Positions 1 through 5,777 are shown, numbered from the stretch's first letter. The stretch is 32,000 nucleotides of DNA from Candidatus Harpocratesius repetitus (GCA_021498095.1 JAIZWK010000001.1:570001-602000), one strand, 5' to 3'. Program-made: numbers and translations. Notes: generated by a model not told the origin, from the sequence alone.

Positions 1-3000
1 GCACAAGAGACAGAAAAATCCAAAATGGATGAAGAAATCACTTCTCAAAAATCAGAACTTTCAGCTAAAGAAGCAACTTTAAAAGCAACTGAAGAAAATT
101 TAAAACGGCTTCAGCAAAATATCGAGAAATTAGAAGATCTTCAGCAAAAACTGGAAGAAGGTCAAACTTATGATGATTTAATTAACAAAACAAAAGAAGA
201 AATTGAAAATCTTCAGCAAGCTTTAGATGAAAATTCAGGATTAATTGATGAAAATAAAGCGAAACAGAAAGAAGAAGAACAAATAATTGCACAAATAAAT
301 AATGAAAAAGCCCAAATTAATAAAGAAATCTCCAAAATCAAACAGGATGGTAAAGCTTTAACTACTGAAATCAAGCTTTTGGAAAAAACTATTAAAAAGA
401 ATGAGAAAAAGAGAGCTCAACTAGAAAAAGATTTGAAAAAGTTACAGAAAGACGCAGAAAGTGTAACTGAAGCGATGGAACAAGCAAAAAATGAAGCCAA
501 ATCCATTCAAGAAAAAATTTCAACATTGAAAAAGCAAATTACTGAGCAAAAATCACTACAAAAACAACTTGATGGAGAAATCCAAAAGCTAGAAGTAAAA
601 CGTGACAAATTTTCGAAATCACAAGCAGAAATTCAAGCTTCCATCTCTTCTGCAGGTGCAGAAATTAACATGCTTGAAACCCGTATACAAGAACTTGAAA
701 AGAAGAAAAAAGATTATAGAAACGAGTATGAAAAACTAACAAAAGGCCAAGCAGTTGAAGACCAAATCAAAACTTTAAAAGTCGAAGAAAAAGAAATCTC
801 ACAACAGTTAAAAAAGCTTAAAGAAAAACTTATTTCCGCAAATGATGAGCAAAAACGAAGTCAAAATAAACAAGAAACCTTGGAATTGAAACGACGAGCA
901 TTAGAAGGAGAATTGACCGACCTTGAAAAACGTCTTTCTGGATTACGTGTTGAACTAAAAACGGCAGAATCAGAACTTCATACTTCACAACGGGAAAAAC
1001 AACATAAAGATATTATCAAAGAAAATTTAATAAAAGAAATTACAATCCAAAAAGAACAAAAAGAGAAATTGCAAAATCAAGTTGAAAATTTTCAAGCTAA
1101 AATAAACCAAATGAAAAAAGAGCGCGCTAAACTTCAAGAAACAATTGATAAAAAGGAAGAAGAATATGGTCAAACTCAACTTGAATTAAACACAGTACTC
1201 GATAATCTAACGAATTTGATTCAAGATATTGATCGCTCTGCAGGTGATATCAAATCTGATATTCAAAATGTTAGTCAAGTTGCAATTGATGAATCAGGAA
1301 AAGTTTTCAAAGAATTTGTGCTCGATGTCACCGATATGTTGCGATCTATAGAAGAAATATCAGAAATGAATCCTGAAGATCCAAAAGAAATCCAGGAACA
1401 ACTGAATTTTGCAGTAAATACTTTAAAATTATTAATTGAAAATGCAGAACAACCACTAATTCAACTTAATGAAGTCGTTCAAGATGCTAGTGATGAAGCA
1501 TTAAAAGAATCTACTGGTAATTTCGATGGATTTATACAAGATTTTACAGATAAATTCGATTCAATTCGTGTTGCTTTACAAGCTGTCGCAGTAGCAGATA
1601 CATCAGAACATTATCGAGCATTAGAGGATCTGAATTCTGCTATTAGTTCCCAATCTGAAGAGCTCTCGAAAATATCAGTTCAGCTAACTCGAATCACAGC
1701 TCAACTGGAACAAAAAGAACGTGAATTATCACAAATCAATTCGGAATTAAAACAGTTACAAACAAAAATTGATGAAGCAGAGAAGAAATCTAAAATAGGT
1801 AAAAAAGAAAATGAAGAAAAAACCAAAAAATCTGAAGAAATAAAAGAAGAAATCGCAAAAATAACCTCCACAATTTTAGATATAAAAAAATCTTCTGAAA
1901 ATTTTTGGAAACATACAAAATCCCTACAAAATGAAATCGATAAAAAAGCAGAAATTCTTTCACAAATTACTGAAGATCTAAATAAATTGAGCAATGTAAA
2001 GCGATTGCTCGATGATATTGAAACAGCAGAACAAGATCAAACCCGATTACGAGATGAAATCAAAAATAAAAAACAGACAATTAAAGATCTTACTGAAAAA
2101 AGTAAAAATATCCAAAAGGATATTGATGCAAATCTTGAAGAAATTGCTAAAATTAAAACTAAACGAGAAAAAGCTGAAGATACTCGTAATGATATTCAAA
2201 CTCAAATCGATGAAGAAAATGAAAGACTTTCTGAAGTTAATGGAAGAATTAAAGATCTAGAAAATGTTCAAAAATTAATAACTGATATCGAAAACTTAAC
2301 AACAGAAATTGAAGAAAATACTGAAAAGATTGCAGAGAATACTAAACAGAATGAAATCTTGGAAGAAGATATTGCAAAACTTGAAAAAGATATTGAAAGT
2401 AAAAATAAATTGATTGAAGAGCACCAAACATCCAGACAATCATTGGAATCTGAAGAAAAAGAACTTCGCACTAAAACTAAAGAATTATCCACACAAATGA
2501 ATAATGTTGAAAAAATACTAGATAAACAACAACAGATGAAAGCACGGGAAGAAGAGATAGAAAATCTTAAGGATGAACAAGGTGAATTGGGCGATTTAAT
2601 AGCAGATTATCAAGAAGATATTCAAAAAATTACCGAAAATTTGATTTCTTTGGAAGAGACTCGTTCAAAACAAATTGAATCATTAAACGAATTACAATCG
2701 CAAAAAAATGAATCTTGGGAAAAACAAAAAGCACTTCGAGACGAGTTGGGCGATTTAAATGCAGACTTCTCCCGAAATACTGCTAAATTTAATGGATTAG
2801 AAACCCGGAAAATTGTAGTTGAAGAGAAAATTGATGAATTATTTGAAAAATCAAAGGATTACGGAACACTTCCACCAGTTACTGATGATCTTTCTGAAGA
2901 ATCCTTAAATCAAAAAATTGGTAAAGCCACAACAGAGAAAAAAGCATTAGAACCAGTAAATCTTAAATCAATTGAAGAATACGACCAAGTTAAGGAACGA

Positions 3001-3603
3001 TGGGACGAAATCGATATGCGCAGGCAAACATTGCAACGCGAAAGAAAAGCAATATTAGATTCAATCGATCGTATTGAATTAGAAAAAACTCGCAATTTTA
3101 TGAAAGCGTATCATGAAATTAATCGAGTATTTAGCTCTATCTTTCAAAAACTCTCTCCAGGTGGCTCAGCAAAGATGATTCTCGAAAATCCTGCACATCC
3201 ATTTGAAGGAGGGATTAGCATTGAAGCTCGTCCGCGTGGTAAGAAGATTTCTTCACTGGATATTCTTTCAGGGGGAGAAAAAACATTAGTTGCACTTTCT
3301 TTCATCTTTGCTATCCAAAACTTCTATCCTGCCCCATTTTATATTATGGACGAGATAGATGCTGCTCTTGATGGTCCAAATGTTTATCGCACTTCAATGG
3401 TTATCAAAGAATATGCTAGAACATCGCAATTCTTAGTAATTAGTCATCGTGAAGAAAATATTACAAACGCTGATAGAATTTATGGTGTCGCCATGAATGA
3501 TGGAATTACCGATATCTTTACCGTAAATTTGGAGGATGAAAAGAAGCGAGACGATTTTGAGACAGAAGTTGAAGTTGTTAAAGATGTTTCAGAATCACAA
3601 TAA
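1..3603 (+). CDS. smc: Chromosome segregation ATPase SMC, 5'-truncated by the window edge
   Basis: Frame is open from base 1 (AQETEKSK precedes the M at 25), so the true start is upstream. Long heptad-rich coiled coil, then PVNLKSIEEY (from 2953), ABC signature LSGGE (3265-3279), Walker B/D-loop DEIDAALD (from 3349) and H-loop SHR (3442). Followed directly by scpA and scpB. Walker A is not in the window. Confidence 0.93.
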   Translation, partial: AQETEKSKMDEEITSQKSELSAKEATLKATEENLKRLQQNIEKLEDLQQKLEEGQTYDDLINKTKEEIENLQQALDENSGLIDENKAKQKEEEQIIAQINNEKAQINKEISKIKQDGKALTTEIKLLEKTIKKNEKKRAQLEKDLKKLQKDAESVTEAMEQAKNEAKSIQEKISTLKKQITEQKSLQKQLDGEIQKLEVKRDKFSKSQAEIQASISSAGAEINMLETRIQELEKKKKDYRNEYEKLTKGQAVEDQIKTLKVEEKEISQQLKKLKEKLISANDEQKRSQNKQETLELKRRALEGELTDLEKRLSGLRVELKTAESELHTSQREKQHKDIIKENLIKEITIQKEQKEKLQNQVENFQAKINQMKKERAKLQETIDKKEEEYGQTQLELNTVLDNLTNLIQDIDRSAGDIKSDIQNVSQVAIDESGKVFKEFVLDVTDMLRSIEEISEMNPEDPKEIQEQLNFAVNTLKLLIENAEQPLIQLNEVVQDASDEALKESTGNFDGFIQDFTDKFDSIRVALQAVAVADTSEHYRALEDLNSAISSQSEELSKISVQLTRITAQLEQKERELSQINSELKQLQTKIDEAEKKSKIGKKENEEKTKKSEEIKEEIAKITSTILDIKKSSENFWKHTKSLQNEIDKKAEILSQITEDLNKLSNVKRLLDDIETAEQDQTRLRDEIKNKKQTIKDLTEKSKNIQKDIDANLEEIAKIKTKREKAEDTRNDIQTQIDEENERLSEVNGRIKDLENVQKLITDIENLTTEIEENTEKIAENTKQNEILEEDIAKLEKDIESKNKLIEEHQTSRQSLESEEKELRTKTKELSTQMNNVEKILDKQQQMKAREEEIENLKDEQGELGDLIADYQEDIQKITENLISLEETRSKQIESLNELQSQKNESWEKQKALRDELGDLNADFSRNTAKFNGLETRKIVVEEKIDELFEKSKDYGTLPPVTDDLSEESLNQKIGKATTEKKALEPVNLKSIEEYDQVKERWDEIDMRRQTLQRERKAILDSIDRIELEKTRNFMKAYHEINRVFSSIFQKLSPGGSAKMILENPAHPFEGGISIEARPRGKKISSLDILSGGEKTLVALSFIFAIQNFYPAPFYIMDEIDAALDGPNVYRTSMVIKEYARTSQFLVISHREENITNADRIYGVAMNDGITDIFTVNLEDEKKRDDFETEVEVVKDVSESQ

Positions 3604-3654
3604 GAATCGAAATAAAGAACGATATAAATAAGATCAATTTAAAAGGGGAGAAAA

Positions 3655-4755
3655 ATGCCAGAAAAAAAAACTGCAGCGAAAAAATCTTCTAGAAAGAAGA
3701 CTACAAAAAGGAAAGGTTCAACAAAAAAAAAATCAAAGAAGACAACTAATTCAAAAAAAAAAAAAAAACAAGCAACTTTATCAACTCCAAAAGCACCAAA
3801 ATCGACTTCAAAGAAAACTTCAACAAAAAAGCCAAGGAAAAAAACATCAAAGAAGGTAAAAAATAGCACAACGAAAAAGAAAAAATCTTCATCTATTCCA
3901 AAAGAACCTGTGATAAAAGAAGTTATTTCGATTGGTGATGATATAGAAGAACAAGAGGTGAATAAGGGAGAAATACTAGAAGATGAACCCCAGATAAAGA
4001 AATGGTGGTTGGAGGAACCTTATCGCAGTCTGTTAGATCCCGATTTAGCAAAAACGGTAGATTTTACCAAATTTGATTTATCTTCGCTAATTGAAGATTT
4101 TACAGCGAAGATGGTGGCTGAAGAATTAATAGATTTTCGTATCTCTGGATTAGCAATATATTCTTCTGCTCAATTATATCATACGAAGATTACAGGAGTG
4201 ATAAAGCAAGAAGAGGAAATTCAAAAAGCAGAAATGCGTGAACGAATTCGTCGTCAAATTCCGAAAGCAATTGCACAGCCACTAAGAGAAGCACGTAAAA
4301 TTGCAACTTCTGAAGAACTTTTTGGTGCTATGCGTAGAGCTATTATAGAAACCATGCAAAAACGAGAAAAGCTAAGAATTCGCCGAGAGCAGCAAAAAGC
4401 AAAAAGAGAGAAGGAAGTAAAAAAAAGAGGTAAAGGAAGGCTTCCTGCGGAAATTCTCAAACATATAACAGGAAGTGAAGAAACTATTGAAGAACGACTT
4501 AAGAAACGGCATCGTCAATTAGTCGAAATTGTACGTATGGAAAATCCGCCTGATCGCACAATTTCAATGAATTATTTTAAAAAAATGATATATAGTGATC
4601 CAGAAAAGAAGTTATTGGAAAAGAAAGTTAAATATATTCAAACATTTGAGGAAATGCTATTTTTAGCATCACTGGGGAAAGTGGTTCTTCATCAAGATGA
4701 CACTGAATCACCATTATATATCAAATTAGTTGATCAAACCAGTATTGAATTCTAA
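3655..4755 (+). CDS. scpA: Kleisin ScpA with an 80-aa Lys-rich N-terminal extension
   Basis: IDFRISGLAIYSSAQLYHTK matches the archaeal ScpA N-domain; TFEEMLFLASLGKVVLHQ...PLYIKL matches the C-terminal winged helix. Lies between smc and scpB. SD-like GGGGAG upstream of the ATG. Confidence 0.85.
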   Translation: MPEKKTAAKKSSRKKTTKRKGSTKKKSKKTTNSKKKKKQATLSTPKAPKSTSKKTSTKKPRKKTSKKVKNSTTKKKKSSSIPKEPVIKEVISIGDDIEEQEVNKGEILEDEPQIKKWWLEEPYRSLLDPDLAKTVDFTKFDLSSLIEDFTAKMVAEELIDFRISGLAIYSSAQLYHTKITGVIKQEEEIQKAEMRERIRRQIPKAIAQPLREARKIATSEELFGAMRRAIIETMQKREKLRIRREQQKAKREKEVKKRGKGRLPAEILKHITGSEETIEERLKKRHRQLVEIVRMENPPDRTISMNYFKKMIYSDPEKKLLEKKVKYIQTFEEMLFLASLGKVVLHQDDTESPLYIKLVDQTSIEF

Positions 4756-4781: not shown

Positions 4782-5777
4782 ATGTCAGAAAAAGAAGAGA
4801 ATAAGAATGAAGATAAAGAAATATCTGAAAAATCAGAAGAAAAATCAAGTGAAATCCAAAACACAAATCAAAATGCGAGTTTAAATGATAATCAGAAGCC
4901 AGAAAGTAATAATAACTTAGAAGTATCTTTGGATAATGACAACGAATTCGATGATGAAATACTCTCAGACTTAGAAGAACTAGATGAAAGTTTAGATTTA
5001 CCCACAGAGAAAGAGGATAATGAAGAGATTGTTGAAGAAGAAGAGAAATTAGACACGATTGATGAAAATGTTCAATTAGAAAAAGATGAAAAAGTGGGAG
5101 AAGAAATAGATACTGAAGAAAAAATAGGAGAAGAAATAGATACTGAAGAAAGAATAGGAGAAAAAATAGATACTGAAGAAAGAATAGGAGAAAAAATAGA
5201 AGGAGAAGATGATGCTTTTCTAGATGAATCAAAAATTGCCCCAATGAGTGACGAAGAAGAAGCACATATCCATTTAAAAAATGTAGTCGAAGGTGCATTA
5301 TTTGTTGCGGGGCGCCCAGTCTCGTTAGAAGAGTTAAATGTGAAAACGGATATTAAAAAGCGGGATTTAGAAGCATTGTTGGATGAGTTAGCTATGGATT
5401 ATTTAATGCGTTCAACTGCTTTGGAAATAATTCGAATTCAAGATAAATACAGTCTGCAAATTAAACCTGAATATACTCCGCGAGTGAAAAAATTTGCCAG
5501 CGGTGGTTTAATTCCAGATGCAATACTGAAGACTTTGACCATCATAGCGCTAAAGCAACCTTTAATGAAATCTACTTTGGTAAAACTTCGCGGTTCTACT
5601 GCTTATGAACATGTGAAGTTTTTAATTGATAGAGGATATATTGAAGCAAGAAAAAAGGGACGTTCATCTGAATTATGTACAACAGATCAATTTGCAGATA
5701 CATTTGGTTTGTCAAGAGATATTGAAACTCAAAAAAAGCAATTAATTGCACAATTAGGTGTCCAAGATGGGAAATAA
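4782..5777 (+). CDS. scpB: SMC-Scp complex subunit ScpB with a ~160-aa acidic N-terminal extension
   Basis: VEGALFVAGRPVSLEEL, YSLQIKPEY, TLTIIALKQP, KLRGSTAYEHVKFLIDRGYI and TTDQFADTFGL are typical ScpB tandem winged-helix motifs. SD GAGGT upstream. Confidence 0.93.
   Translation: MSEKEENKNEDKEISEKSEEKSSEIQNTNQNASLNDNQKPESNNNLEVSLDNDNEFDDEILSDLEELDESLDLPTEKEDNEEIVEEEEKLDTIDENVQLEKDEKVGEEIDTEEKIGEEIDTEERIGEKIDTEERIGEKIEGEDDAFLDESKIAPMSDEEEAHIHLKNVVEGALFVAGRPVSLEELNVKTDIKKRDLEALLDELAMDYLMRSTALEIIRIQDKYSLQIKPEYTPRVKKFASGGLIPDAILKTLTIIALKQPLMKSTLVKLRGSTAYEHVKFLIDRGYIEARKKGRSSELCTTDQFADTFGLSRDIETQKKQLIAQLGVQDGK
5088..5200 (+). repeat. In-frame 30-bp tandem repeat (~3.8 copies) encoding GE(E/K)IDTEE(K/R)I
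   Basis: Unit ggagaagaaatagatactgaagaaaaaata at 5097-5126, with near-identical copies at 5127-5156 and 5157-5186 and partial copies on both sides. No spacers. Confidence 0.95.

Follow-up and report, generated by a model that had tools for sequence, protein, structure and literature searches.

The window analysed here, a stretch of 32,000 nucleotides (nt) of the Candidatus Harpocratesius repetitus genome (GCA_021498095.1 JAIZWK010000001.1:570001-602000), contains an open reading frame (ORF) of 366 amino acids at positions 3655-4755, between smc and scpB, that encodes a divergent kleisin of the ScpA type. The first 80 residues of this protein form what is predicted to be an intrinsically disordered polycation, with two blocks rich in lysine, serine and threonine (K/S/T) arranged around a K-Q-x-x-L motif. 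The explanation that we favour as a whole, and judge reasonably probable from the charge of this tail and from the modules that take its place in related kleisins, is that it acts as a non-specific DNA-binding arm beside the neck of the SMC (structural maintenance of chromosomes) protein. The window belongs to a single-contig genome of 4.36 Mb with 33% G+C, from Harpocratesius, a member of the Lokiarchaeia.

Composition and motifs of the N-terminal tail

Translation of positions 3655-3894 gives, in residues 1-80, 33 lysines and 3 arginines vs. a single acidic residue (E3), for a net charge of +35, together with 14 serines, 14 threonines, 4 prolines, 4 alanines and one TPK, at residues 44-46. 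Residues 81-130 contain 15 aspartates or glutamates in 50 positions. These counts agree exactly with a preliminary description of the window, which had noted 36 K/R and one acidic residue in the first 80 amino acids, a richness in serine and threonine, the TPK and an acidic patch beyond. Lysine makes up 41% of the tail vs. 8.0% of the crude proteome. When 80-residue segments were ranked by net charge across the whole genome (non-overlapping ORFs of at least 100 amino acids, n = 3,287), the kleisin tail came first at +37, ahead of a runner-up at +33 and a median of +7. The AlphaFold2 model shows no secondary structure in residues 1-113, where the predicted local distance difference test score (pLDDT) is about 40.

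Two short motifs recur in the N-terminal region of this protein family. The Q-x-x-L pattern, typically K-Q-x-x-L-(T/D), is represented here by QATL at residues 39-42. In several divergent subclades it marks the end of the first basic block, and 47 of 87 homologous tails contain it vs. 8.0 +/- 2.6 (maximum 15) in 500 shuffles. Read as a PCNA-binding PCNA-interacting protein (PIP) box, it was rejected on inspection, the aromatic pair at +7/+8 being missing. The P-x-IKEVI-x-x-G motif parts the tail from the acidic linker and is seen in nearly all homologues, and its E89 is invariant among 55 sequences. Both KQxxL and IKEVI look like short docking sites.

At the DNA level, the tail is 58% A, and 25 of the 34 tail lysine codons are AAA. 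The first basic block ends in an A16 homopolymer at 3753-3768 that encodes KKKKK. Only five homopolymers in the genome, this one included, reach 16 nt or more, and the run is probably a site of frequent slippage, sequencing errors and ribosome sliding. The idea that this run is a conserved frameshift or attenuation signal found no support: a sister strain has KKTTK at this position, the run being strain-specific.

The ORF encodes a divergent ScpA-type kleisin

Neither the whole protein nor its core matched an NCBIfam ScpA model or, even at E <= 10, PF02616; the scans gave low-complexity noise alone (Pneumo_att_G, DNA pol III tau, fibronectin-binding). Its identity was therefore argued from profile, fold and synteny. 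Related members reach PF02616 with E-values of 0.0045-0.008 and scores of 16.7-17.4 bits vs. a cut-off of 24.6 bits, and a core-only profile (A2) finds P0121, a PF02616 protein with a PF02616 score of its own of 1.3e-10, at E 3e-13. A profile of 55 homologues matches, over its positions 117-216, residues 22-120 of the Thermococcus onnurineus ScpA N-domain (6ivh_A) with an E-value of 8.7e-4, a weak match in the correct place, while the C-terminal end of the same profile matches the ScpA/Scc1 C-domains 5h66_C and 5xg3_C.

The AlphaFold2 model is confident from about residue 115 on. Its C-domain (residues 277-366, pLDDT ~90) superposes on the C-terminal winged-helix domain of Pyrococcus ScpA (4i99_C) over 70/70 residues, with a Z score of 10.6 and a root mean square deviation of 1.7 A. 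With VIA-align, this domain also aligns to the Scc1-C chains 6qpq_B (Z 10.6) and 1w1w_E (Z 9.6), and RAD21 chain 6wge_C aligns at both the N and C ends (Z 10.9). A Foldseek search with the whole model returned nothing at E <= 0.001, kleisin C-domains ranking top but weakly. The central region is presumed to bind ScpB, by analogy with known ScpA architecture.

On the plus strand, the gene order is smc, kleisin, scpB, and scpB follows the kleisin gene in 24 of the 26 related loci examined. Profile, fold and synteny thus bear out the preliminary assignment of the gene as a kleisin and place it in an SMC-ScpB operon.

Translation of the tail almost certainly starts at ATG 3655

A Shine-Dalgarno-like GGGGAG precedes ATG 3655. 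The preliminary description had itself raised the GTG near 3910 as an alternative start; this codon, which falls within the junction motif, has no Shine-Dalgarno sequence before it, and since relatives have V, E or K at the corresponding residue (86), no internal start is conserved. The frame extends without a stop to a distal ATG in 20 related loci, usually with a GGAGG-like site and a MAKKK- or MPKKK-type beginning. When the tail DNA was shuffled 20,000 times by mononucleotides, the frame remained open across its 84 codons in just 70 cases (0.35%), and its openness is therefore not explained by A-rich composition alone. Lastly, in a sister clade the corresponding upstream stretch codes for a folded HeH domain; since folded domains there must be translated, the upstream region is translated in relatives. 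From these sequence comparisons, translation of the tail from ATG 3655 is almost certain.

A mis-annotated start would have translation begin at GTG 3910, GTG 3958 or TTG 4009, and would make the A-rich stretch an untranslated open leader. Two observations speak for it: with T scarce, the +2 frame too is free of stops over about 80 codons, and some gene callers have shortened close homologues (P0004 to 266 and P0006 to 256 amino acids). Such a start would, however, turn 306 nt of an otherwise compact operon into non-coding DNA, and the Shine-Dalgarno site, the shuffle test, the distal starts kept across 20 loci, the variability of position 86 and the HeH domain of the sister clade all argue against it. 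We consider a start downstream of ATG 3655 very improbable.

The tail is retained, or replaced, in related kleisins

The kleisin core is present in 39 of 41 related genomes. We gathered 98 homologues, mostly of 320-440 amino acids, including Promethearchaeum syntrophicum DSAG12_00819 (P0024) and one from a single-contig 6.0-Mb genome of the same family. The same tail is found in two cultured relatives, P. syntrophicum and Lokiarchaeum ossiferum. In a tree of the core, the Loki-type kleisins form one clade (97% support in the Shimodaira-Hasegawa-like approximate likelihood-ratio test, SH-aLRT) apart from the short ScpAs, and nearly every subclade within it, basal ones included, shows basic tails. 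The kleisin cores have diverged to about 40% identity across the order, with the tail retained. Compared with the sister strain, the tail is about 80% identical vs. 98% for the core, its length and composition being kept. The absence of the tail from close relatives, an outcome that the preliminary description had entertained, was thus not observed; it is present in close and distant relatives.

Outside this group, ScpA starts close to its helical domain, as had been stated for typical members of the family. In 40 more distant ScpA clusters the core begins 2-36 residues from the N-terminus, and in 75 Asgard genomes outside the order the ScpA open frames measure 203-311 amino acids vs. 245 positions for the core.

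The strength of the tail varies among homologues: the net charge of the best 40-residue stretch runs from 0 to +20, with Harpocratesius at the extreme, and some homologues keep just MA(K/R)KKK followed by acidic sequence. Such tails grow through tandem duplications that keep the reading frame, as in a congener (21 nt x 5.4 copies).

In several lineages the N-terminus carries a different module. A single nested clade (100% support) has a HeH/SAP-like domain at residues 13-47 (PF10281 2.2e-8, PF12949, PF07498; HeH/SAP/Rho_N-type), and P0097 and P0098 have an (HhH)2 domain (PF14520, ~1e-14). In the genus g13, an N-terminal CPYCG...HKC (Cys2-His-Cys) forms a putative zinc knuckle, for which the zf-C2H2 match (E 0.022) is sub-threshold and suggestive only; one f1 genome has the knuckle and a K-rich tail together. 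Whichever N-module the kleisin bears, an acidic ScpB N-extension of 59-229 amino acids is found at every related locus examined in the order. We infer from this pattern that the Loki-type kleisin has an obligatory, exchangeable N-terminal appendage whose function would be to bind nucleic acid. Our literature searches found no description of this tail or of module swapping.

Proposed function of the tail and competing explanations

In Smc-ScpAB, cohesin and condensin, the N-domain of the kleisin attaches to the neck of the SMC, close to the heads, and it is there that DNA is clamped. We propose that the Harpocratesius tail would bind DNA, or nucleic acid generally, by charge and non-specifically, and that the P-x-IKEVI motif and the acidic linker would tether it to the helical domain that binds the neck. 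Held near the neck and heads in this way, it would raise the local concentration of DNA where SMC complexes clamp it. The outcome could be help in recruitment or loading, or an anchor during translocation or loop extrusion, in analogy with the short, positively charged N-tail of the cohesin kleisin. The acidic linker, the acidic extension of ScpB, or modification of lysine or of serine and threonine may regulate it. Modification of the kleisin tail is plausible by analogy, because the histones of Loki archaea have lysine-rich tails, and these archaea possess SIR2 deacetylases as well as an acetyltransferase for which such tails are acceptable substrates (bioRxiv 10.64898/2026.07.02.735847).

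The nucleic-acid role appears best supported by the HeH/SAP, (HhH)2 and zinc-knuckle-like modules found at the same position in related kleisins. Folded nucleic-acid-binding modules have been swapped in where the tail would be, which argues that DNA binding is the selected property.

Several observations weigh against this proposal. The case for DNA binding by the tail itself is built on charge and module replacement, and the tail matches no DNA-binding family in Pfam and NCBIfam scans, nor did an ESM Atlas search with residues 1-95 give a usable match. The charge density of orthologues varies so widely (best 40-residue window 0 to +20) that a strong polycation is not universally required. A similar K/S/T tail is present on the translation factor aIF2-gamma; such tails are therefore not DNA-specific and bind polyanions generally. 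The conserved KQxxL and IKEVI motifs and the ever-present acidic ScpB extension suggest protein-protein contacts as well. Finally, the zinc-knuckle call is below threshold.

Alternatively, the tail could be an electrostatic latch or gatekeeper, which would mainly contact its own acidic linker, the 165-residue ScpB extension and acidic parts of SMC, and so control assembly or opening of the neck gate, DNA binding being secondary or competitive. An acidic linker always follows the tail, and the acidic ScpB extension, present in every locus of the order examined, is not found on the other ScpB paralogues of the genome; KQxxL and IKEVI, with its invariant E89, resemble docking sites; and the CAP-H N-tail, with its basic conserved helix and phosphoregulation, provides a precedent (PMC9797191). 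However, the ScpB extension is equally present beside the near-neutral HeH kleisins, and at locus L009 a strongly acidic ScpB accompanies a kleisin with hardly any basic tail, so the kleisin and ScpB tails do not correspond closely. The HeH, HhH and zinc-knuckle modules that take the place of the tail likewise point to nucleic acid, and not to an acidic protein, as its partner. We therefore regard a tail that is mainly a latch as rather unlikely, although this and the DNA-binding arm are not mutually exclusive. We also considered whether the charges of the ScpA tail and of the ScpB extension vary together; there was only a loose trend with clear exceptions among non-independent kin, and we make no claim for it.

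The tail might, on the other hand, be a neutral low-complexity expansion, produced by AT-rich composition and replication slippage in A-rich codons and tolerated, as a disordered segment, without a specific function. The low G+C content of the genome, the predominance of AAA among the tail lysine codons, the tandem repeats in the congener tail and in the ScpB extension of the window (30 nt x 3.5), the wide differences in length and charge among relatives, and the similar tails on several other proteins of the genome are all in keeping with this. Yet the kleisin tail is the most extreme in the genome, it has been retained across the order despite the divergence of the core, and it always lies at the same terminus and is always followed by the same motif and acidic linker. 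Moreover, in some clades folded nucleic-acid-binding domains, and not nothing, replace the tail, and the paralogous kleisin and ScpB genes of the genome are without such tails. Neutral expansion is thus improbable in our view.

The DNA-binding arm can be extended to a broader proposal, which we hold to be doubtful: all Lokiarchaeia-type kleisins might need an N-terminal nucleic-acid module, DNA capture or anchoring having moved to the kleisin, by the neck gate, in a hinge-less long-armed SMC. Such a module would be a counterpart, possibly a forerunner, of the DNA-guiding N-tail of eukaryotic kleisins, and both the acidic extension of ScpB and the machinery with which Loki archaea acetylate lysines of histone tails could serve to tune it.

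Features of the operon

The features of the operon are listed in Table 1. The complete smc ORF, read from the genome, encodes 1,487 amino acids and starts 861 nt upstream of the window; Pfam and NCBIfam scans found no SMC_hinge match in the part of smc within the window. The ScpB extension includes a nearly perfect tandem repeat (30 nt x 3.5) at 5097-5200.

Table 1. Positions, in window coordinates, of the features of the smc-kleisin-scpB operon.
Feature	Position	Residues	Strand	Basis or remark
smc, 3' part	1..3603		+	NCBIfam SMC_prok_A/B C-terminal head match and Pfam SMC_N
Shine-Dalgarno-like GGGGAG	3645..3650		+	4 nt before ATG 3655; direct sequence reading
Basic block 1 (MPEKK...SKKKKK)	3655..3768	1-38	+	Ends in A16 homopolymer
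Q-A-T-L-S-T-P-K motif, K-Q-x-x-L type, TPK included	3769..3792	39-46	+	Q..L enrichment in homologous tails
Basic block 2	3793..3894	47-80	+	AlphaFold2 pLDDT ~40, no secondary structure
Junction motif I-P-K-E-P-V-I-K-E-V-I-S-I-G	3895..3936	81-94	+	55-sequence alignment
Acidic linker	3937..3996	95-114	+	Acidity kept across homologues
Kleisin N-terminal helical domain	3997..4302	~115-216	+	Starts at invariant KWW; profile and AlphaFold2
Central helical/linker region, presumed ScpB-binding	4303..4482	~217-276	+	AlphaFold2 helix 219-252
Kleisin C-terminal winged-helix domain and stop	4483..4755	277-366	+	AlphaFold2 superposition, profile matches
scpB	4782..5777		+	Pfam SMC_ScpB (PF04079) 1.2e-33; ScpB domain at residues 168-312
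ScpB acidic extension	4782-5276	1-165	+	65 D/E vs. 16 K/R

Other SMC modules and lysine-rich tails of the genome

The genome contains three SMC modules, and the kleisin of the window belongs to the Lokiarchaeia-specific, hinge-less, long-armed one, with the 1,487-residue SMC. A canonical SMC of 1,206 amino acids with a strong hinge (PF06470 5e-32) is encoded at G000:C1:1712176-1716392 (L062:5176-9392), followed directly by a 196-residue ScpB without an acidic extension; no scpA adjoins it. Because this canonical hinge-bearing SMC is also encoded, the window operon is not the sole SMC system of the genome. The third module, at G000:C1:1238999-1243949 (L063:4999-9949), consists of an SMC-like gene of 1,188 amino acids with a weak hinge match (E 1.2e-3), a 268-residue ORF without a family match, and a 186-residue ScpB-like gene (PF04079, 1.2e-6); the 268-residue ORF may be a kleisin, and the module may be of an SMC5/6-related archaeal type. 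The preliminary description had placed the tail on a condensin ring. That term needs qualifying, as the kleisin is part of this lineage-specific type of module, which coexists with the canonical and third modules.

A further kleisin-like gene of 367 amino acids lies at G000:C1:2880016-2881116 on the minus strand (L061:7016-8116), with a PF02616 match below threshold (E 1.6e-4) and a match to the A2 profile at E 2.9e-5. Its N-extension, about 85 amino acids long, is non-basic. The gene is flanked by ORFs of 802 and 1,343 amino acids without Pfam matches, with a PARP-like ORF nearby, and its product might be the partner of the canonical SMC. Charged tails are absent from the other kleisin-like and ScpB paralogues of this genome. 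We also considered whether loss of the SMC hinge is paired with gain of a kleisin module. The genome-level contrast failed because other SMC paralogues carry hinges, PF06470 being present in most genomes of the order, this one included.

Tails in the style of the kleisin tail were seen on other proteins. The aIF2-gamma gene (GTP_EFTU and eIF2_C domains) at G000:C1:3806503-3808089 on the plus strand (L022) encodes an N-terminal K/S/T-rich tail of about 110 amino acids, which gives the sole match in the genome to the chlamydial H1-like HC2 family, a weak one (E 3.7e-4). This tail recalls the lysine boxes that exist on eukaryotic eIF2-beta. Four more ORFs have KKTTKK-style tails, two N-terminal and two C-terminal: G000:C1:890430-891692 (+), 4357204-4357944 (+), 3819996-3823121 (-) and 2230313-2231182 (-). 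No Pfam or NCBIfam identity was found for these four. KKTTKK-style tails may be a recurrent appendage in the lineage.

Implications

SMC complexes are universal organisers of chromosomes, and there is continuing debate on how they first grip and hold DNA. Recently, short or regulatory N-tails on the kleisins of eukaryotic cohesin and condensin have been implicated in DNA entry and gate control. Here, among the closest prokaryotic relatives of eukaryotes, an order-wide kleisin always bears an N-terminal appendage. The use of a polycation or of three kinds of small nucleic-acid-binding domain in different lineages amounts to a natural domain-swap experiment. The appendage is accompanied by a hinge-less SMC and an acidic ScpB extension, and the canonical SMC module of the same genome, without the tail, the hinge loss or the ScpB extension, provides an internal control. 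Should the tail prove irrelevant, the finding would shrink to an ordinary low-complexity extension.

Comparison with known systems

The kleisin of the window shares with prokaryotic ScpA (PF02616; 6ivh, 4i99, 5h66, 3zgx) the order of an N-terminal helical and a C-terminal winged-helix domain and a gene located between smc and scpB. It differs in scoring below the Pfam and NCBIfam thresholds, in its N-extension of 114 residues (polybasic tail, conserved motif and acidic linker) vs. 2-36 residues in 40 other ScpA clusters, and in its pairing with a hinge-less 1,487-residue SMC and a ScpB that bears an acidic extension.

Like the N-tails of eukaryotic-type kleisins, the tail is a charged, unstructured segment (pLDDT ~40) placed before a helical domain, which starts here at about residue 117. 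In Schizosaccharomyces pombe Rad21, the positively charged N-tail (residues 1-17; 12-17 residues) crosslinks to DNA and is required for topological loading (Higashi et al. 2020, PMC7507959). The two proteins have in common a positively charged, unstructured stretch just N-terminal to the neck-binding kleisin helix; the Rad21 stretch, however, measures only about 12-17 residues with few conserved lysines, vs. 80 residues with 36 K/R here, and there is no detectable sequence homology. The N-tail of CAP-H in condensin I, of about 80 amino acids, is a gatekeeper and a proposed regulator of the SMC2-kleisin gate (Tane et al. 2022, PMC9797191). It too is a disordered N-extension of about 80 residues on a kleisin, with basic residues and many serines and threonines. 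The CAP-H tail is inhibitory, is regulated by mitotic phosphorylation and, unlike the tail described here, is not a polycation.

In composition, the tail resembles the C-terminal domain of histone H1, chlamydial Hc1/Hc2 (PF07382) and the N-tails of Loki and Hod histones, all being about 40% lysine, disordered and of high pI. Loki and Hod histones have lysine-rich N-tails, and Loki archaea use such tails on chromatin proteins (bioRxiv 10.64898/2026.07.02.735847). The kleisin tail nevertheless differs from H1-like tails in being rich in serine and threonine (35%), with alanine and proline at 5% each and one (S/T)PK, and in being located on an SMC-complex subunit rather than on a histone or HU fold. 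Repeated S/TPKK motifs are absent from the tail, and the H1/H5 globular domain (PF00538) was not found in the kleisin by Pfam at E <= 10, its sole winged helix being the kleisin C-domain. The earlier label of histone-H1-like is thus apt for lysine content and charge and does not extend to the globular domain, to alanine and proline richness or to repeated TPK motifs. Homology to H1 or Hc2 was rejected, as there is no Pfam match.

The kleisins MukF and JetA, of a different kleisin branch, have folded winged-helix domains at their N-termini that serve in dimerisation and DNA binding. The fold matches of the window kleisin include the C-domains of both, and all are kleisins that carry an extra N-terminal module of their own. 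What sets the present protein apart from MukF and JetA is the nature of this module, which is a disordered polycation here and a HeH domain, a HhH domain or a zinc knuckle in its relatives.

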